DNA of 32,000 nt from Candidatus Methylomirabilis oxygeniifera (GTDB taxonomy: Bacteria > Methylomirabilota > Methylomirabilia > Methylomirabilales > Methylomirabilaceae): positions 1,110,001 through 1,142,000 of the forward strand of contig FP565575.1 of the NCBI GenBank assembly GCA_000091165.1, given 5' to 3'. The notes below the pieces were generated by a model. That model was not told the DNA's origin. It did no database searches and worked only from the letters and a program-made list of their open reading frames with translations. The translations under genes were made by a program, and so were the position numbers. Shown piece after piece: positions 3,792 through 21,805 of this stretch. Positions within the stretch are counted from its first letter, which is position 1. Each line of letters opens with the position of its first letter.

Positions 3792-5210
3792 TTATTCGTC
3801 TGAATCCACTCGCCGGGCACCCCAGGGAATCTGATAGGCCTTCATTCGGCGCCACAGTGTGGTGCGGCTGATCCCGAGGTCTTTGGCGACTAACGCGAGA
3901 TTACCGTTTCGCGACCGGAGTTGTTCTAGAATATGGTCTTTTTCAACCTGCGTCAGGGTCGGACTCCCCGCTGCGTGGGAAGGATCACCGGGTCTCGGCA
4001 GCCATTCGTCGAGATCGAGCCGCGACCCATTGCTGAGAAGGACCGCTCGCTCTATCAGATTCTGTAGCTCCCTGACGTTACCCGGGAAGTCATAGTCCAG
4101 CAGCCGCTGCATCGCCTCTTGGCTCAGTCCCATGACGGGCTTTTTCAGCTTCTTGCACTGTTTTTCCAAAAAATAGTCGACCAACAGGGGAACATCTTCT
4201 CTTCGTTCCCGTAAGGGAGGAGTTCTGATGGGAAACACACTCAGGCGGTAGTAGAGGTCCGCCCGGAAGGCGCCCTTTTTGACTTCTGATTCCAAGTCTC
4301 TATTGGTCGCCGCAACGATTCGGACATCCACCTGCCTGGATTCGGTCTCCCCGATCCGCCGCATCCTGCCATCCTGAAGCACCTGAAGCAGCTTCACCTG
4401 CATCGTGGGGCTCATTTCGCTGACCTCGTCCAGGAAGAGGGTCCCTCCATCCGCCACCTCGAAGAGCCCTTTCTTGTCCTGCACAGCCCCCGTAAAGGCC
4501 CCGCGTCGATGGCCAAATAGCTCACTTTCCAAAAGGGTCTCCGGGAGCGCGCCGCAGTTTTGCTCGATAAACAGCCTCCCTCGTCTAGGGCCACGATGGT
4601 GGAGGTGGTGGGCGATGACCCCTTTCCCTGTTCCTGTTTCTCCGGTGAGGAGGATCGTGGCGGAGCTGTCGATGACCTTCTCTATGAGATCGAAGAGCCG
4701 CCTCATAGCCGGGCCATGGCCGATGATGGTATCCGAACGGGGATCCTTTTCGACCTCCTGCTTCAGATACAGATTCTCCGTTTGCAGTCGTTCGTTGGCC
4801 GCCTGAAGCTCCTTGAGCAGCCGCTGATTCTCCATGGTCAGCTCATAGCTTTCGAAGGCGCGCTTGACGGTAATTTTCAACTCATTCCGATCCCACGGTT
4901 TAGTGATATATCGATAGATCCTCCCGGCATTGATGGCTCGGATAAGGGACGCGGTGTCGGTGTAACCCGTCAGGATCATCCGGATAGCCTGGGGACGCTT
5001 GGTAATGGATCGCTCCAGAAATTCGACGCCTGTCATCTCCGGCATCCGCTGATCCGCGATGATGAGGGCGATCTCCTGCCGGTCCAGGATCGTCAGTCCT
5101 TCAGCGCCACTGCCGGCCTGAAAGACATCATAGTCCTCCTCGAACGTAAGGGAGAGGGTGGTCAAGATATCGCGTTCGTCATCCACGATCAGCATCCCGT
5201 ATCGGTTCAC
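3792..5210 (-). CDS. Sigma54-dependent response regulator (NtrC family: REC + AAA+ sigma54-interaction domain + Fis-type HTH)
   Basis: REC domain (LIVDDERD...IIADQRMPEMTG), Walker A GETGTGKG, GAFTGA loop (RRGAFTGA) and C-terminal HTH (LALVAKDLGISRTTLWRRM). Start is GTG at 5210, or alternatively ATG at 5195. It begins 1 nt after the kinase stop. Confidence 0.95.
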   Translation of the reverse strand: MNRYGMLIVDDERDILTTLSLTFEEDYDVFQAGSGAEGLTILDRQEIALIIADQRMPEMTGVEFLERSITKRPQAIRMILTGYTDTASLIRAINAGRIYRYITKPWDRNELKITVKRAFESYELTMENQRLLKELQAANERLQTENLYLKQEVEKDPRSDTIIGHGPAMRRLFDLIEKVIDSSATILLTGETGTGKGVIAHHLHHRGPRRGRLFIEQNCGALPETLLESELFGHRRGAFTGAVQDKKGLFEVADGGTLFLDEVSEMSPTMQVKLLQVLQDGRMRRIGETESRQVDVRIVAATNRDLESEVKKGAFRADLYYRLSVFPIRTPPLRERREDVPLLVDYFLEKQCKKLKKPVMGLSQEAMQRLLDYDFPGNVRELQNLIERAVLLSNGSRLDLDEWLPRPGDPSHAAGSPTLTQVEKDHILEQLRSRNGNLALVAKDLGISRTTLWRRMKAYQIPWGARRVDSDE

Positions 5211-5211
5211 T

Positions 5212-7341
5212 TTATACCCCGCTCCACTTTACCGGAAGTTCAATGGTAAACTCCGTTCCCTGGCGATCTGGACTCGATACGCGGATGGTGCCGCCATGTT
5301 TTTGTATAATCCCATAGCTGATGCTGAGGCCCAGGCCCATCCCTTCCCCCACCTTCTTTGTGGTAAAGAAGGGATCAAAGATCTTCGACAGATTCGACTC
5401 AGGAATGCCGTGCCCGTTATCCCTGATGACGATGATGACCGTATCTCCATGGGAAGCCGTTCTGATCCAGACTTCTCCAGTCTCATGAATGGCTTGAGCG
5501 GCGTTGAGCAGCAGATTCATGAACACTTGATTGATCTGGCCAGGATGACATTCCACCTGAGGCAGGACTCCATACTCGCGATGGACAGTGATCCGATCTC
5601 TATACTCCTTTACAAGGAGGTTGAGGGTTATCTCAAGTCCTTCATGTAGATCGGCAGGCGCAGGATCGACATCATCCGCCCTGGCAAAGGTCCCGAGGTC
5701 CATGACAATTCTCTTTACCCGTTCTGTCCCCCGCTTGCAACTGGAAATCAACTCATCCAATGTATGAAGAGTCCGGTCGAGTCTGGCCCCTTTTTTCAGC
5801 TCTGCGAGATGCCGATAGGCGGGACTATCGGGCAGTTCGACCGTCTCATAGGCCTCAAGCACTCCTTTAAGGTTTAGAATATATTCGGCTATGAAATCGA
5901 TGTTACTATGGACGAAGCTGACGGGATTATTCAACTCATGAGCAACCCCCGCTACCAGAAATCCCAAAGAGGCCATCTTCTCCGTTTGGAGAAGCTCATT
6001 CTGGGTCTGGGCCAGCTCCTGGAGGGTCTTCTCCAACTCGTGATGCCCTTTTACCAGCTCTTCGTTTGTCGCAGCAAGTTGGGCGGTCCGCTCCTTGACC
6101 TTTTGGTCCAGCTCCCGGTTCATCGCCTCCAGGGCGAGACGTCGTTCCCGCTGGGCAGAGAAGACCTGAGCGATCAGATACCCGCCGTAGATCAGACCGA
6201 ACTGACCCGTGCCGGCGAAGACAGGAAGCCAAAGATTCCCTTTGACAAATAGCCCATATGCGACTACGAGAAAAAGCGCAGAAAGGCAGAGGAGCGCTCC
6301 GAGGGCCCAGAGCGGCTTGAGACGGAGGGCAATGACACTGCCGATCAGGGCCAAAAGAAAGAGGAGACTATACCGCACCCCTGAGGAGGGTTCGTGTACC
6401 ATCCGATCTGCCAAGAGGTTAGCGACGATCGTTGCATGGATCTCAACCCCGGCGGTGGGACCGCCTACGTGAAAGGAGAACGGAGTAGGGAAGACATCCG
6501 GAGAGGTTCGTTGCGGTTCCGGCGCCGCCTGGATGGCGCGGCCGATCAGGACAATCTTGTCGGAAAAGGTCCCCGGCGGAAGCATCCGATCAGCCTCGAG
6601 GGCCTGGTAGTAAGAGATCGTCTTGACGGTCCTTGGGGGACCAAAATAGTTGATCAGAATCGCCTTCGAGAGATCGGTCCGGATTCCATGCGGCTTCTGT
6701 CGTAGGTAGAACCTGACGATTTGATCGGAGAACGAGGGAAGGACGGAGGAGACGGGAAGGGGTCGTCTCACGGTCCCGTCAGGGTCGATGGGAAGGGTGG
6801 CGATTCCCACTGACGCGGCCGATCTGAAGGGTTCGATGGGATCGACAAGGATCGTCTGACGAAAGAGCGGATCAGCGGTGACGGACTGCTCGCTGGCGAG
6901 GACGACGTTTCCAGCCTCCCGAATGGCCCGTGCCAACGCCCGATCGTCCTCAGGCTGGGAAGGTTCTGCGAAGAGAATATCGAAGGCGATGACCCTGGCC
7001 CCCGCCTTCTTCAGGTGATCGATCAGGCGGGCATGAAGGCTCCGAGGCCAGGGCCACTGCTTCGAGATCTCGGCAAACGACGGCTCATCGATGGCGACAA
7101 CAACGACCTCAGGTGGAGGCGCCATGGCGCCACGGAGCATAAAAAGGAAGTCCAACCCTTTCAGCTCGAATAGGGAAAAGAGGGGGAGATTGGCTAGAAC
7201 GAGCATCACCGCAAAAGTCGGCATCACGATGAGGGCAGCTTGCAGCGCAGGCCACACTCGATCATTGCTGGCCACTAATATCCCCACATGGTCTACTCGA
7301 GTGAATGATGGCGCCCACATCACAGATGTGGGCGCCATCAT
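5212..7341 (-). CDS. CHASE2-domain sensor histidine kinase
   Basis: The N-terminal region is CHASE2-like ([10 protein letters not shown]...[29 protein letters not shown]), followed by TM segments and a coiled coil. Kinase motifs are the H-box [12 protein letters not shown]-box [10 protein letters not shown]1 DNGHGI and G2 GMGLGLSIS. The exact start is uncertain because there is no strong SD. Confidence 0.9.
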
Positions 7342-7469
7342 GGATGGGCATAAGTCGACATCGTTTGTGGACCATCATCTCACAGGAGGTGCGCAACCTG
7401 ATATATCTTAGCATTAGCGTCTACGTGGCTGTAGAGGGATAGACGAGCCCGAGAGGCCGACGGACGCGC

Positions 7470-7724
7470 CTACGGCTTAGGGAAACAGTACAATTTCCCG
7501 CCTTGAATGAGACAGATAGTAGGATTCGTGGTGGTAACAATGGTGACGCTGGTAATGTTCTCCACCGACTTGCCGTCCAGGTTAGCTCTCATGCCCTTCG
7601 GGATGTTTTCACCTTCCTTCTTTTCATGGTGAGGATGGATTACTCGACCCATCCCCTTACTGACGCCGCCCTCATAAACCTCGGTAATGTTTCCCTGGTT
7701 GTCGAACTCCACTGTGAATGCCAT
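7470..7724 (-). CDS. Small hypothetical protein (84 aa, C-terminal CxxxxxxxxC) between the barrel gene and the kinase gene
   Basis: The ATG at 7724 is preceded by AAGGGAG 8 nt upstream. The track ORF extends to a GTG at 7808, which sits directly on a GGAGG and so has no spacing. The protein has no signal peptide and no recognised family. Confidence 0.55.
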   Translation of the reverse strand: MAFTVEFDNQGNITEVYEGGVSKGMGRVIHPHHEKKEGENIPKGMRANLDGKSVENITSVTIVTTTNPTICLIQGGKLYCFPKP

Positions 7725-7849
7725 CTTTCTGCTCCCTTCTGCGTCCGCTGTGGTTGAATTAATCACCGCTTTTCCGTTTACGTTCCCCTTGGACACCGCG
7801 TACCTCACCTCCTTTCATTGCCGCCCCCGGATGGGCCTCAACATAACAG

Positions 7850-10800
7850 CTAAAACGCCACGGTCAACCGAAACAGGACCTGACGTTCTGGTGCTACCGT
7901 CGGACTACGAGGATCTGTATCCTGAAAGTGGAAGCGATTGTCGAACAGGTTTCTCACGTCGAGGGTGAGCAGGCCCCTTCGGTTAGGCAAGCGATAGCCG
8001 ATAGAAGCGTCAACGACCCAGAACCGATCGCTACCGGCCAGGACATCACCTGTAAGCCGATTCTGGAACTCTCCCTCCTGATCGACGTAGGTAGTTTTGA
8101 GCCGCGCCCGGAGGCCTGACGAGTGGAAGAAGCTCAATCCCAATGGAACCCGATGGGTATGGGTCATTGCTATTCCTTCCTCTCCAAACGCCACACGTCG
8201 CCTAAACCGTTCGTACTGATACTCGGCACTGATCGCAAGCCAGGCCCTTGGAGTCCAGTAGAGGTAGGCCCGTCCCAGGTCCTCTTCCCAGTCCCTGTCT
8301 CGATATTTCCCTTCCCCTGGTGCGAAGCCCGGCGCGTCGGTATCCCGCCGCGAAAACTCCGCCCCTCCAAACAGGGCCGTGGAGAGCTTCTGATCGACGG
8401 CAACACCGTACCGCCACGCTTCTGTGCCGTTCACGTCGTCAAAGAACTGATTGAAGCCGGCCACCTGGGTCGGCTCGATCGTTTGATCCGACAGGAGGGA
8501 TCGCTTCAGGACCCTGAAGACAGCGGCCCGCAGGGTTGTATCGGGAAACGGGTTCCAGGTTACCCCGAACTTCGGGTTGAACTGGTTTCGCTCGAGAACA
8601 GAAAGGACCTTTCGATCATCCTTGTTTCGGGTCGTAATCTTGAAGAAATCGGCGCTCCCGCCCAAGGTCCACGTAACATTATGCGGAAAGTTGATCAGGG
8701 AGTAGAGATAAAGATTGGTATGGCGATTATCATCTTCTGTCAGTGCTAAGGGGAATGACAGGAAACTGGTTACGTCCGTACGATCGGCGTCGAAATGACC
8801 GGCCCCGCTGATCAGATGTAATCGTTTCCAACGGAACAAATACTGAATCTCTCCCATGAAGCCGTCCGTGTCCGTCAAGAGGTCAAACCCCTTGACCATG
8901 AAGTTACGGGTGTCAAAATCAGCGTTTCGGTAGATGCCGGATGCGATAAGGTGAGAGTCGGGTGTAAAGGCATGATGAAGACCCAGTCGTATCGATCGGG
9001 TCCGATCATCCTGTTTTTGATCCGGAAAGAAATTGTTCCGATCGAATCGCAGCGGCAGGTCGCCTCGCTCAAAATCCTTGTATCTGAACTCTGCCTGGAC
9101 GCTGGTACTTGGCGAGAGGCTCATCTGGACAAAAGCGTTGTAGATGTCCTGGTTCTGGTCGTTATTTTTTCGGAATCCGTCGGTCTCCTGATGGAACTGG
9201 CCAAGACTATAGGAAACGTTTCCATGGACACCAGAGAGGACCACTTCATCACCAAGTGTGTCCTTTTCTCCAGCGGTTCCCGACGCCAGGAGGCTCACCC
9301 GATCGCGGACAAATAGAGGATTAAACTCATTCAACGAGGGATCTTGCGGCCCGGCACTGTCTAGAATAAAGAGATTGCTTTCCGCCAGTTGCGGCTGCAC
9401 CGGGGTAATGCTGATCGGTTGAAGAAGCTGGGACTGGAGCAGCTCACTCACCCTGGCGACCTCATGGCGAGGTAGGGCAGCATAGGAGTCAGACAGGAAC
9501 CGATGGGCCGAGTAGTTAGATGGATCCTCAATGGCTGCCTTCCATCCTTCAACTAACGCAAGCTGTTGGAATCCCAGCTCATTATACACTCTGGCAAGAG
9601 TCGCGCCCCGCGCCGCGAGATCCTGATCCATCAACAGGCGTGATCGGTAAACCGCACGATTGTCATTCAGCTCGATCGATCGCTGTAGATCCTGCATCGC
9701 CTCTACTGGACGGTTGACGCTTTGCTTGCGAATGGCGTCATAGAGCCATGGGGTGGGATCGTTCGGATCCAGTGTCTTGGCAATCGCCAAGGGATCCATC
9801 TCTAACGGATAACGTTTCACCTCGTAGAGCGCTTTCCCTAGATAGCTCCAGAATAAGGCAACTTTGGGCTCCAGGAGGGTAGCCATCCACATCTCCTGCA
9901 CTGCCTCCTCTGTCTTATTCTGCCTAAAAAGCGCGAGGCCGCGGCCGAGGTGAGGCTCTCCGCGCGTGGAATCCTGCTCAATCGCCTGGCCAAAGGCCGA
10001 GAGCGCTTCCTGGACCTTCCCCTGGGTCAACATGAGGAAGCCCCATGTGCTGGTGATAAGGGGATCGTGGGGTGCCCTTTGACGGGCCTCCTCAACCAGA
10101 CTTAATGCCTCGGAGAGCCTTCCGAGGCCAAAGAGGAGGCGGCTTACCTGGATCATGGCTACAGGGTTGTCCGGCTCCAACTCCAGTGCCTTCCTGGCGG
10201 CCTGAAGCGCTTCCTCCAGACGGAACTCGGCCTGCTTGACCAGGCTCAGGTCGAGATAGGCCGAGGCGGAGGACGGATTGGCGAGGATCGCCTGCAGCGC
10301 CGCTTGCTGCGCTACCCCCTTCTCGTTCCGAACCAGGGCAATATTGGAGCGAAGACCATGAGCCGGCGCGTAGCCTGGATCGAGGGCCACGGCATGCTCT
10401 AACTCCTGGAGCGCCTTGCCCACCCGGCCCTGAATGAGGTAGAGAAGAGCCGTCTGAGTCGGCGGCTGTGGGGAGGATGGGAAACGACTTTTGGCCTCAG
10501 CAACGACCTCTTCCATCTCATCAAAGCGATTAAGTCGATAGAGGGCGTTGGCCTGTCCCATAAGGGCTGAAAGGGTAGGAGGCGTCGCTTGCCGAAACGT
10601 TCTCAAGGCCTCCTCGGTCCTCCCTTCCACCAGGTAGACCCACCCCAGACCTGTGAGCGCCCTCGGGCTCCCCGGATCAAGGGTTAGGGCTTTCTCAAAT
10701 CCTCTTCGTGCCTCGACCGGTTTGCCCAGATCGAAGAGGATCTCGCCCAGCGTGACCGTCGACTCCGAATCCGCCAGTCTCGAAGCCGCCCTTCGTTCGG

Positions 10801-11512
10801 CGTCGACCAACCGTTCCGGGAGAAGATTCGGCGCGACGCCGGTCAGAGGATAATCCCGGAAGCCGACAATCCCGGGGTAGTAAAGGGACCATTGGACCGC
10901 ATCGATGGGCCTCAGGAGGATGGTCTTGCTTGGGGGTTCGCCTACCCTGGCCGTGGCCGCCTCTCCCGCCCTCACCATGACACCCCCCTGAGGATTGCGA
11001 AACTCAACCACCCCCTCGAGTACGGCAAGACGGGATTCATTGCCTGGATCGACCGAGAGGTCAAACTCCGTTCCCCGGATCGTTGCCGTCACCGCCGGCG
11101 TTCGAATCTGCAAGGGCCTGCCGCGACTTCGACTCCAGACCTCTCCCTTCAGCAGGTTGAGGATGGTCTGCATGGGGCCCGCCGCCGCACGGGTCGCGCT
11201 CCCGGGGGGCGACATGACCTCTGTAATCTCCAGGGTGCTGTTGGAATTGACCTTGATCTGTACTTCGTCCGAGAGGAGGATGGCCGCTCGACTTCCCGGA
11301 CCCGTCCTCACCACATCTCCAGGCATGAGGACGTGCCGGAGCGCTACCGGCTGCCACTGCTGGACCCGGAAGATCTCAACCCTTCCCACGACGCTCACAA
11401 TTCTCCCTGCTTCTTGGGCCGTTGCAACACTGATGCTCAACATAAGCCAGACGATCGAGCAGAGGAGGATGGGAAGGACTCCGCGCTGGGTTGGGACTTG
11501 GCGACAATTCAT
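7850..11512 (-). CDS. Secreted FecR-domain + TPR-repeat + C-terminal outer-membrane beta-barrel fusion protein (1220 aa)
   Basis: Signal peptide (LLCSIVWLMLSISVATA/QEAG). FecR-like N-domain (GRIVSVVGRVEI...PGDVVRTGPGSRAAILL...VKVNSNSTLEI). About 450 aa of TPR-like repeats follow (e.g. ALTLDPGSPRAL, ALELEPDNPVA, AIEQDSTRGEPHL). The C-terminal ~450 aa are rich in alternating beta-strand patterns and end in the OMP signature LFRLTVAF. GGGGAGG SD lies 9 nt upstream. Confidence 0.85.
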   Translation of the reverse strand: MNCRQVPTQRGVLPILLCSIVWLMLSISVATAQEAGRIVSVVGRVEIFRVQQWQPVALRHVLMPGDVVRTGPGSRAAILLSDEVQIKVNSNSTLEITEVMSPPGSATRAAAGPMQTILNLLKGEVWSRSRGRPLQIRTPAVTATIRGTEFDLSVDPGNESRLAVLEGVVEFRNPQGGVMVRAGEAATARVGEPPSKTILLRPIDAVQWSLYYPGIVGFRDYPLTGVAPNLLPERLVDAERRAASRLADSESTVTLGEILFDLGKPVEARRGFEKALTLDPGSPRALTGLGWVYLVEGRTEEALRTFRQATPPTLSALMGQANALYRLNRFDEMEEVVAEAKSRFPSSPQPPTQTALLYLIQGRVGKALQELEHAVALDPGYAPAHGLRSNIALVRNEKGVAQQAALQAILANPSSASAYLDLSLVKQAEFRLEEALQAARKALELEPDNPVAMIQVSRLLFGLGRLSEALSLVEEARQRAPHDPLITSTWGFLMLTQGKVQEALSAFGQAIEQDSTRGEPHLGRGLALFRQNKTEEAVQEMWMATLLEPKVALFWSYLGKALYEVKRYPLEMDPLAIAKTLDPNDPTPWLYDAIRKQSVNRPVEAMQDLQRSIELNDNRAVYRSRLLMDQDLAARGATLARVYNELGFQQLALVEGWKAAIEDPSNYSAHRFLSDSYAALPRHEVARVSELLQSQLLQPISITPVQPQLAESNLFILDSAGPQDPSLNEFNPLFVRDRVSLLASGTAGEKDTLGDEVVLSGVHGNVSYSLGQFHQETDGFRKNNDQNQDIYNAFVQMSLSPSTSVQAEFRYKDFERGDLPLRFDRNNFFPDQKQDDRTRSIRLGLHHAFTPDSHLIASGIYRNADFDTRNFMVKGFDLLTDTDGFMGEIQYLFRWKRLHLISGAGHFDADRTDVTSFLSFPLALTEDDNRHTNLYLYSLINFPHNVTWTLGGSADFFKITTRNKDDRKVLSVLERNQFNPKFGVTWNPFPDTTLRAAVFRVLKRSLLSDQTIEPTQVAGFNQFFDDVNGTEAWRYGVAVDQKLSTALFGGAEFSRRDTDAPGFAPGEGKYRDRDWEEDLGRAYLYWTPRAWLAISAEYQYERFRRRVAFGEEGIAMTHTHRVPLGLSFFHSSGLRARLKTTYVDQEGEFQNRLTGDVLAGSDRFWVVDASIGYRLPNRRGLLTLDVRNLFDNRFHFQDTDPRSPTVAPERQVLFRLTVAF

Positions 11513-11667
11513 GCGACGTTACCTCCCCGTGATAACCAGCTTCTTTGACTCACCCTACCTTGAAAGTGACTATCTGAAGTGAGCTGTAATGTCAAGACTA
11601 TAATAAGACCACAAAATACCTGTCTTTGGCTTAATGAAGAAACTGTGCCAACGCTTTACGCTCAGAC

Positions 11668-11937
11668 TCAAAGCAGGGACGCTATTTGGGACTCGTGAGA
11701 AAAGGTTAAAGCGCGTGCGCGCGCGGCTGCCGCCGTGCGCGTCCCCACCCCAAGCTTCTCGAAAATATGCTCCAGGTGCTTTTGTACCGTCCGTGGACTG
11801 GTATCGAGAATCTCTCCAATCTCAGCATTGGTCTTCCCATCGGTTACCCAAGTGAGTACCTCCACCTCCCGGCGCGTCAGACCGAGGCGTTCAGAGAAGA
11901 TGTTGTCGTGAAACCATCTCGTGCTGATCCTGTCCAT
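11668..11937 (-). CDS. Stand-alone LuxR/GerE-type HTH transcriptional regulator (89 aa)
   Basis: LTRREVEVLTWVTDGKTNAEIGEILDTSPRTVQKHLEHIFEKLGV matches the LuxR C-terminal HTH. The ATG at 11937 has a GAGGAGG SD 5 nt upstream. The longer track ORF start at 12003 lacks an SD. Confidence 0.85.
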   Translation of the reverse strand: MDRISTRWFHDNIFSERLGLTRREVEVLTWVTDGKTNAEIGEILDTSPRTVQKHLEHIFEKLGVGTRTAAAARARALTFSHESQIASLL

Positions 11938-12102
11938 AGCTACCTCCTCTGATTCGGTTATCAGGTTTACTCTCGGCACGTGAACCGGGTGCTTGGTCGC
12001 CATTGAACAACTCAGGGCTGCCGCGTCTCAGCATCTTCTGACCGGAGGGTGTAGTCAACGTCGGACTTGACTCGTCGTCAAGTCACGGCAACTGTATCCA
12101 TT

Positions 12103-12119
12103 AACAAGGGACATGCCAA
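12103..12119 (-). promoter_or_regulatory. Sigma54-type promoter, copy 3, upstream of the LuxR-type gene (and possibly the whole sensor operon)
   Basis: Minus strand reads TTGGCATGTCCCTTGTT. It lies 166 nt upstream of the ATG at 11937. Confidence 0.55.
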
Positions 12120-12227
12120 AACGACATCCCCCTTTCAGATTCCTCTATCTCTGCATTTTCATGACGCCTTGTGACTATTTCATTTCCAGAGTGAGGAGGG
12201 GATCAGCCACAAGAGAGCCCTGCAACA

Positions 12228-12264
12228 TGAAACATAATGTTTCACGCGGTTTCACTCTGAAACA
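12228..12264 (-). promoter_or_regulatory. Upstream activator sequence, copy 3
   Basis: Plus strand reads TGAAACATAATGTTTCACGCGGTTTCACTCTGAAACA. It lies 108 nt upstream of promoter copy 3. Confidence 0.6.
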
Positions 12265-21794: not shown

Positions 21795-21805
21795 ATAAGC
21801 GAACC

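Follow-up and report, generated by a model that had tools for sequence, protein, structure and literature searches.

We analyzed a 32,000-nucleotide (nt) stretch of Candidatus Methylomirabilis oxygeniifera (herein M. oxyfera; contig FP565575.1, positions 1,110,001 to 1,142,000; this whole stretch is referred to as the window, and coordinates are window positions unless a locus is named). Five open reading frames (ORFs) lie head to tail on its minus strand. From upstream to downstream, they encode a stand-alone LuxR/GerE-type helix-turn-helix (HTH) protein (luxR; 11668 through 11937; 89 amino acids (aa); Pfam GerE, E = 1.4e-18); a 1220-aa putative NsrA-type outer-membrane protein (herein OMP; 7850 through 11512; FecR, E = 7e-16; many TPR families; TonB_dep_Rec_b-barrel, E = 1.4e-11); an 84-aa protein with the C-terminal motif NPTIC-x8-C and no Pfam or NCBIfam family (7470 through 7724); a 687-aa CHASE2 histidine kinase (5212 through 7275; CHASE2, E = 8e-59; HATPase_c, E = 9e-27); and an NtrC-family response regulator and sigma-54 activator (3792 through 5210; REC; Sigma54_activat, E = 2e-69; HTH_8). 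An earlier note on this DNA had described five head-to-tail minus-strand genes with these domains as a candidate envelope-to-sigma-54 signaling operon, and our ORF listing and Pfam scan agree with its gene and domain description. The kinase protein has exact matches on contigs of Candidatus Methylomirabilis oxyfera (phylum NC10), among them GCA_009026205.1 and an ENA assembly bearing the organism's name. As recA, a pilT-like ATPase gene, recX and alaS also lie within the window, this is ordinary chromosome; an Rfam scan of the window found no known RNA family.

Defining the start codons alters the spacing of the array. For luxR, the longest ORF starts at 12003 (111 aa), and orthologs in other Methylomirabilis loci have 92 to 122 aa; the most likely start is ATG 11937, which is preceded by a GGAGG ribosome-binding site. 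The longest kinase ORF starts at 7341 (709 aa); GTG 7275 is the most likely start, because the deposited M. oxyfera protein has 687 aa and the orthologs align from there. Not all gaps are therefore short, as had been described earlier: the kinase stop (TAA) and the regulator start (GTG) are one base apart, and the remaining gaps, from luxR onward, are 155, 125 and ~194 nt.

OMP comprises a signal peptide, a FecR β-sandwich, a TPR solenoid of ~470 aa and a plug-less, 22-strand barrel resembling those of TonB-dependent receptors; its C terminus ends in LTVAF. An AlphaFold model of the mature protein (pLDDT 85.7, pTM 0.81) places the β-sandwich at residues 1 through 165, the solenoid at 195 through 664 and the barrel at 706 through 1187. 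When this model was compared with the Protein Data Bank using Foldseek, FpvA, FecA, PqqU and FhuE ranked at the top (E = 2e-17 to 1e-16), with FpvA and FecA the best. The Pfam scan gave no Plug match in OMP, and the model puts FecR and TPR at the usual place of the plug. Of the hallmarks of a TonB-dependent transporter or transducer, the predicted 22-strand barrel is there, but an N-terminal plug with a TonB box is not. OMP also does not appear to be a FecR-type anti-sigma factor, since it has the PF04773 domain alone, behind a signal peptide. No extracytoplasmic function (ECF) sigma factor was detected among the window ORFs scanned against Pfam.

A tblastn search against plasmids with OMP led to a 1190-aa "FecR domain-containing protein" encoded on pSymB of Sinorhizobium meliloti. 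The two proteins are collinear by BLASTP (E = 3e-31 for the FecR-TPR N-terminal half and 3e-5 for the barrel), at an identity of only ~27%. From published descriptions and its locus tag, we take the pSymB protein (locus L007) to be NsrA. The gene directly after it encodes CHASE2 (E = 5e-37) joined to Guanylate_cyc, and the pair agrees with published NsrA/CyaK (PMC7529298, PMC10463352, PMC13001267). Genetic evidence, from S. meliloti only, shows that its CHASE2 cyclases need the homologous OMP to perceive the signal (PMC7529298), and the signal perceived through it is external and protein-like (PMC7529298, PMC13001267). The architecture of OMP, its kinship with the pSymB protein and its adjacency to a CHASE2 gene together indicate an NsrA-type outer-membrane sensor.

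A genome scan with the OMP alignment recovered at least 494 relatives. Where an OMP-family locus was well flanked (at least 4 kb on either side; n = 52), a CHASE2 protein was encoded in the flanks in 45 cases. Typing of 57 neighbors by Pfam found CHASE2 in all of them, joined to a cyclase domain in 49, a SpoIIE phosphatase in 4 and a kinase in 3. Despite this low share of kinases (3/57), the kinase-type arrangement is common and widespread. The kinase search returned 629 protein clusters at E ≤ 1e-30, many from Competibacteraceae, and among the kinase matches listed 21 are apparently co-located with an OMP match, as judged from longest contigs of equal size. The nine kinase-type loci examined (NC10, Competibacteraceae and Thiorhodococcus) all have the order OMP, middle gene, kinase, NtrC-type regulator. 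The synteny check that the earlier note had suggested has thus been run, and with CHASE2 near 45/52 OMP loci and the core order kept in 9/9 it speaks for a conserved association. OMP is 65 to 71% identical in the orthologous loci of three other Methylomirabilis genomes. The middle gene encodes a small protein or, in two Competibacter loci, a PatG-like S8 peptidase. In these Competibacteraceae loci a PatG-like subtilisin (Peptidase_S8, PatG_D, PatG_C) occupies the small-protein slot (L008, 11499 through 13538; L053, 13166 through 15192), and the L053 copy appears fragmented. luxR is part of the array in Methylomirabilis only, being absent from every non-Methylomirabilis kinase-type locus examined. 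Judged by gene order, the conserved core has four genes and luxR is a lineage-specific addition.

CHASE2 is among the commonest bacterial extracytoplasmic sensor domains. It has no established ligand (PMC5192318). In the kinase encoded here, a predicted periplasmic CHASE2 domain is combined with HATPase_c and an H-box histidine (His468 in the 709-aa numbering), together with N, G1, F and G2 boxes; an invariant AHELNNP and the four boxes are present in an alignment of seven kinase sequences. These features identify it, at the level of sequence, as a CHASE2 sensor histidine kinase. The translated regulator has a receiver with D10, D11 and the phospho-acceptor Asp53, an AAA+ domain with GAFTGA and a C-terminal Fis-type HTH, which fit a sigma-54 activator of the NtrC family (response-regulator class); it matched no NCBIfam equivalog at cut-off.

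A direct-repeat search and alignment revealed four minus-strand copies of a ~160-nt module in the window. A copy is made up of two palindromes (GTTTCA-N3-TGAAAC followed by TGAAAC-N5-GTTTCA), a central block that is conserved, AGAGTTAGAGAAA, and, ~130 nt downstream from the first of the palindromes, TTGGCAyG-N3-CTTGTTA. A composite search pattern of palindrome, spacer and TGGCAYG-N3-CTTGTTA has three matches in the window against none expected; the fourth copy is degenerate in its half-sites and was recognized by alignment. Copy 3 (12102 through 12263), reported previously as a sigma-54 module upstream of the array, is recovered, and the first gene downstream of it is luxR. Its palindromes, GTTTCAGAGTGAAAC (12249 through 12263) and TGAAACATTATGTTTCA (12228 through 12244), form an enhancer-like site, and its -24/-12 element is TTGGCATGTCCCTTGTTA (12102 through 12119). 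A copy precedes luxR in each of five Methylomirabilis genomes, four of them assemblies and one a metagenome contig. The module has 11 instances in the four assemblies, always before the luxR-led cluster and the gene for a 379-aa protein, which is the conserved second target in all Methylomirabilis loci. A scan of JGI metagenome contigs gave five matches, all before the luxR-led cluster or the 379-aa gene.

The regulators of the gammaproteobacterial kinase-type loci are 62 to 64% identical to the regulator at 3792 through 5210. Three of these loci (L097, L098 and L099) carry a perfect GTTTCA-N3-TGAAAC, its bipartite layout retained, at the regulator stop or at most ~20 nt from it; 165 to 300 nt after the palindrome, a canonical sigma-54 promoter (TTGGCyT-N5-TTTGCT) precedes the gene of a 116-aa XRE-type HTH protein. 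A fourth, L053, has the palindrome upstream of its OMP gene, together with a TGGTGT-N5-TTGC element. The background is 0.23 palindrome matches per 20 kb, allowing at most one mismatch, over 1.4 Mb of non-kinase loci. Recurrence of GTTTCA-N3-TGAAAC beside orthologous regulators in two phyla supports the link between regulator and palindrome, and the palindrome is probably the binding site of the regulator. A shared logic is suggested, whereby the regulator would activate the sigma-54 promoter of a small DNA-binding protein of the stand-alone kind (a LuxR-type one in NC10, an XRE-type one in Gammaproteobacteria).

On the gene content, domain integrity, synteny, module conservation and fold computed here, we hold with moderate confidence that the cluster is a cell-surface signaling pathway of the NsrA/CHASE2 type with a two-component output in place of a cyclase. 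OMP, anchored by its barrel, would present the TPR solenoid and FecR β-sandwich in the periplasm and perceive a cue from the exterior or the envelope, perhaps jointly with the 84-aa protein. It would hand this cue to the periplasmic CHASE2 domain of the inner-membrane kinase. The kinase would then phosphorylate the adjacent NtrC-type regulator at Asp53, and the regulator would bind GTTTCA-N3-TGAAAC and TGAAAC-N5-GTTTCA ~130 bp upstream of TTGGCAyG-N3-CTTGTTA and activate sigma-54 RNA polymerase. Four units would be switched on: luxR, a putative second-tier regulator, with probable read-through into the genes for OMP, the small protein, the kinase and the regulator; and the genes of a DoxX-like membrane protein, a calpain-like peptidase and a 375-aa protein. 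Basal expression of the sensor genes would probably come from a TTGACA block between luxR and the OMP gene, so that autoregulation, if any, would be amplification above a constitutive level. The earlier note had offered the trans-envelope relay as its own inference. That reading gains support from the characterized S. meliloti homolog and from the strong OMP-CHASE2 synteny; the pairing of CHASE2 with FecR is nevertheless already published (PMC5192318, PMC9239204 and the NsrA work). Homology and synteny support a real envelope relay, but one of the known NsrA/CHASE2 kind, in which we infer contact between OMP and CHASE2.

How the array is transcribed bears on whether the regulator drives its own genes. 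The gap between luxR and the OMP gene contains a non-coding block on the minus strand (11565 through 11604; ATTATnnTCTTGACATT...ACTTCnGATAGTCA; ATTAT-N2-TCTTGACATT...ACTTCAGATAGTCA) that is almost invariant in five Methylomirabilis genomes and includes a perfect -35 hexamer, TTGACA; its TTGAC and GTCAA form an inverted repeat. The block is a candidate internal sigma-70-type promoter, operator or both, and with it falls the earlier claim that module copy 3 is the only strong promoter-like signal upstream of the array. A second element, on the same strand, is a hairpin with a perfect 17-bp inverted repeat (ATGATGGCGCCCACATC-TGT-GATGTGGGCGCCATCAT; 7305 through 7341), 30 nt upstream of the probable kinase start. 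It occurs upstream of the kinase start in four Methylomirabilis species (GATGGCGCCCACATC-N3-GATGTGGGCGCCATC, 15 to 17 bp; orthologs at L089 14603 through 14635, L090 14196 through 14254 and L091 14185 through 14217). Both of the substitutions observed keep the pairing, as G-U, on the sense strand, and a 99-nt region containing the hairpin folds at -42.8 kcal/mol (z = -3.4). The hairpin has no U-tail; it might act in processing or stability, in attenuation or as a site for a protein.

Three observations weigh against the pathway as proposed. The block at 11565 through 11604 and the hairpin before the kinase could split the array into independent transcripts. Three of the four palindrome-bearing gammaproteobacterial kinase-type loci have the palindrome only downstream of the regulator, not upstream of OMP, so autoregulation is not general to the family. 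And while the -24 TGGCA has the correct spacing, the -12 is TTGT rather than the canonical TTGC in all 11 Methylomirabilis copies. One operon is favored by the common strand throughout, the conserved order and the conservation of the module upstream of the luxR-led cluster, and no terminator-like site was predicted on the minus strand in the intergenic gaps of the array. A single five-gene transcript is not established; the conserved core has four genes and luxR is confined to Methylomirabilis.

The most serious alternative is that the array forms at least two transcription units, with the sigma-54 module serving luxR only and the genes from OMP to the regulator expressed constitutively from the TTGACA block, without meaningful self-drive by the regulator. 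Near-invariance of the block in five genomes and its perfect -35 hexamer speak for this arrangement, as does the absence of luxR from non-Methylomirabilis kinase-type loci, where the four-gene core must therefore have its own promoter; in L097 through L099, moreover, the module drives a separate small HTH gene, not the sensor genes. Yet the gap from luxR to the OMP gene has no terminator-like structure, and the block offers only a poor candidate -10 (GATAGT, spaced by 15 nt, or TAGTCA, spaced by 17 nt); in L053 the palindrome and a sigma-54-like promoter directly precede the OMP gene. Read-through could also coexist with an internal promoter, and we regard a strict division into two units as possible but the less probable arrangement. 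A constitutive internal promoter is itself likely, since a positive loop depends on the sensor being expressed at a basal level. Given these sequence features, autoregulation by amplification, through read-through from the sigma-54 promoter past luxR, is plausible.

The relay itself would be lost if OMP were a transporter, porin or scaffold and the CHASE2 kinase sensed a periplasmic molecule alone, their adjacency reflecting shared physiology. A barrel of the TonB-dependent transporter type and the lack of an established ligand for CHASE2 (PMC5192318) leave room for this explanation. Against it, OMP has no plug domain or Pfam-detectable N-terminal transporter module, and its S. meliloti homolog is, by genetic evidence, needed by the CHASE2 cyclases for perceiving the signal (PMC7529298). 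OMP also pairs with CHASE2 receptors of three different output domains, which argues for a conserved sensor-to-CHASE2 interface, and we consider the transporter explanation quite unlikely. That the four modules answer to another enhancer-binding protein, with its gene elsewhere in the genome, is highly improbable: activators and modules were counted over 32 kb of genome only and binding of the regulator to the palindromes is inferred, but the same palindrome and bipartite layout recur beside orthologous gammaproteobacterial regulators (62 to 64% identity), all five metagenome matches fall within this cluster, and the adjacent regulator is the sole sigma-54 activator among the Pfam-scanned ORFs of the 32-kb window.

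The 84-aa protein between OMP and the kinase has only three close relatives in a word-indexed search. Family membership was therefore set by hidden Markov models (HMMs) built from the ORFs of the loci, together with an exhaustive profile search. HMM members are encoded on the OMP strand, starting 0 to 250 nt past the OMP stop, in ~38 fetched loci of cyclase and kinase type alike, and share the C-terminal motif (T/S)NPxC-x-W/Y-x4-G-x-W/Y-x3-C. Sec or lipoprotein signal peptides are found in 9 of 37 members and in none of the others, including the 84-aa protein. The exhaustive search gave 26 matches at E ≤ 1e-3, 13 of them small and 13 large proteins; all five large matches scanned against Pfam are RCC1-repeat proteins, in which the motif fits each blade (HTCAIRGGALYCWG). 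The AlphaFold model of the 84-aa protein is unusable (pLDDT 45). Sequence and position place the protein in a previously undescribed family of small proteins, whose members carry a two-cysteine hairpin motif at the C terminus and whose genes directly follow NsrA-like genes.

Any role for the 84-aa protein as co-receptor, barrel lid or released signal is speculative. The fullest version would make it an unrecognized third component common to NsrA/CHASE2 systems: a small β-hairpin protein, closed by a pair of cysteines and bearing one RCC1-blade-like motif, that docks to OMP as a co-receptor or as a plug or lid in trans for the plug-less barrel, or is itself the released signal. In Methylomirabilis the sigma-54 promoter may induce it together with the sensor. 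We think this unlikely. If it were true, co-induction would set up self-signaling across the outer membrane in a quorum-like loop. Earlier descriptions of NsrA/CHASE2 systems make no mention of the conserved small partner protein identified here.

The closest known system is that of S. meliloti, in which NsrA acts with the CHASE2 adenylate cyclases CyaK, CyaD1 and CyaD2 and with the regulator Clr. As here, an OMP of ~1200 aa with N-terminal FecR, TPR and a C-terminal barrel is encoded beside an inner-membrane CHASE2 receptor. The outputs differ, being cAMP and a CRP-type regulator in S. meliloti, and a histidine kinase, an NtrC-type regulator and sigma-54 promoters here; the small two-cysteine protein encoded here between OMP and the receptor was not found at the S. 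meliloti locus. A CHASE2 cyclase cluster of Campylobacterota (cyclase, phosphodiesterase, FecR-domain OMP and TPR protein), proposed by its authors to form one signaling pathway, shows the same clustering of CHASE2, FecR-OMP and TPR, but its output is a cyclase, its FecR-OMP and TPR regions are separate proteins, and it has no two-component system or sigma-54 (PMC9239204). The Burkholderia "BiofilmReg" operon (OmpR-type regulator, LysM-FecR protein, CHASE2-PAS histidine kinase and DUF4136) likewise sets a CHASE2 kinase beside an extracytoplasmic FecR protein and a cognate regulator; there, however, the FecR partner is a periplasmic LysM protein rather than a barrel, and the regulator is CreB/OmpR-type and sigma-70 dependent (PMC5192318). 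BiofilmReg also lacks TPR repeats and the small two-cysteine protein.

Two less closely matching systems share individual parts. FecA-FecR-FecI resembles the cluster in its 22-strand FecA/FpvA-fold barrel, FecR-type periplasmic domain and passage of information from the outer membrane to transcription. Here, in contrast, barrel and FecR are in one polypeptide and the barrel has no plug or signaling domain; there is no anti-sigma transmembrane protein or ECF sigma factor, and the inner-membrane partner is a CHASE2 kinase. The PEP-CTERM set of PrsK, PrsR, PrsT and EpsA likewise has a TPR protein, a histidine kinase, a sigma-54 response regulator and a LuxR-type regulator, and PEP-CTERM families were among the top NCBIfam matches for the LuxR protein, the TPR region of OMP and the regulator. 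Membership in that set was rejected, as the scores are far below the curated cut-offs (74 vs. 170, 101 vs. 312, 357 vs. 503 and 80 vs. 300); PrsT, moreover, is not a barrel protein and PrsK has no CHASE2. Literature searches for CHASE2 with sigma-54 and for Methylomirabilis signaling returned nothing relevant. The output through a kinase, an NtrC-type regulator and sigma-54, with a defined site and a local regulon, is a new variation on NsrA/CHASE2.

The dependence of the S. meliloti CHASE2 cyclases on NsrA is the sole mechanistic lead on CHASE2 sensing, and the same OMP-CHASE2 module is tied here to a kinase, an NtrC-type regulator and sigma-54. The candidate DNA site and small local regulon, conserved from NC10 to Gammaproteobacteria, give a transcriptional read-out that could be used to search for the signal. 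The cluster is also a testable candidate for environment sensing by M. oxyfera, a slow-growing nitrite-dependent methane oxidizer.

The other three module copies, all on the minus strand, define the remainder of the putative regulon. Copy 1 (1675 through 1834) is upstream of a 45-aa ORF and a calpain-type (Peptidase_C2) gene (174 through 1346). Copy 2 (3371 through 3531), directly downstream of the regulator gene, precedes the gene of the 379-aa multi-pass membrane protein (2171 through 3310, minus strand), which has a weak DoxX match (E = 0.002). Copy 4 (15871 through 16031), whose half-sites are the degenerate ones, is upstream of the genes of a 375-aa protein (14508 through 15635) and a 114-aa protein (14023 through 14367). 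The -24/-12 elements of the four copies, with TTGT at -12, are at 1677 through 1691, 3373 through 3387, 12104 through 12118 and 15873 through 15887. The equivalent promoters in the gammaproteobacterial loci L097 through L099 and a promoter-like site before a molybdopterin oxidoreductase gene in L091 have the canonical TTGC. In L089 and L091 the module precedes an extra 190- to 202-aa ORF of no Pfam family (8868 through 9476 and 8859 through 9431, respectively) upstream of the LuxR gene; the induced unit there would thus have six genes.

A Shine-Dalgarno-like sequence, AAAGGAGGTG, occurs ~55 to 70 nt downstream of the -12 in modules 1, 2 and 4 (window 1470 through 1617 and 15808 through 15831). 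In module 2 it serves the 379-aa gene, and in module 1 it precedes the 45-aa ORF (a 43-aa gene in the ENA annotation); the leader from the module 1 promoter to the calpain-type gene is ~330 nt. The 375-aa protein had no Pfam, NCBIfam or PDB-sequence match, and PADLOC gave no relevant anti-phage defense match for the regulon proteins. GHG and LSCRT motifs in its C-terminal half recall a His/Cys peptidase dyad, as seen in the 375-aa protein, whose N-terminal region has a paralog in the 114-aa protein, sharing IER...PD[FY]K...S[KR]DD[IV][IV] by eye.

Between modules 3 and 4 lies the apparent remnant of a TonB-dependent receptor gene, probably a pseudogene (12537 through 13552, minus strand). A 175-aa ORF (13025 through 13552) starts mid-domain and matches the distal Plug only; the remnant runs on in another frame (12694 through 13332) as typical first barrel strands and then breaks off. 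The Plug ORF was considered as a plug in trans for the OMP barrel and rejected, as it belongs to a decayed receptor gene and is missing from 80 related loci.

Farther from the array, positions 21800 through 27100 form a low-GC stretch (~0.50 vs. 0.58) with genes for an SfiI-like restriction enzyme, an N6/N4 DNA methylase and an HTH and Peptidase_M78 (ImmA/IrrE-like) protein, and two ORFs of unknown function. It is an insertion island, because alaS directly abuts the phosphatidylserine decarboxylase gene in other Methylomirabilis genomes. The PilT-like T2SSE ATPase gene between recA and recX (17487 through 18626) is present in L090 and absent in L089. A 38-nt direct repeat (CAGGCAGATAGACTGAAGCCTGAAG...TTTTAGGGGTA; 92% identical) has its two copies just after recA (17338 through 17375) and at the low-GC island's right edge (27030 through 27067).

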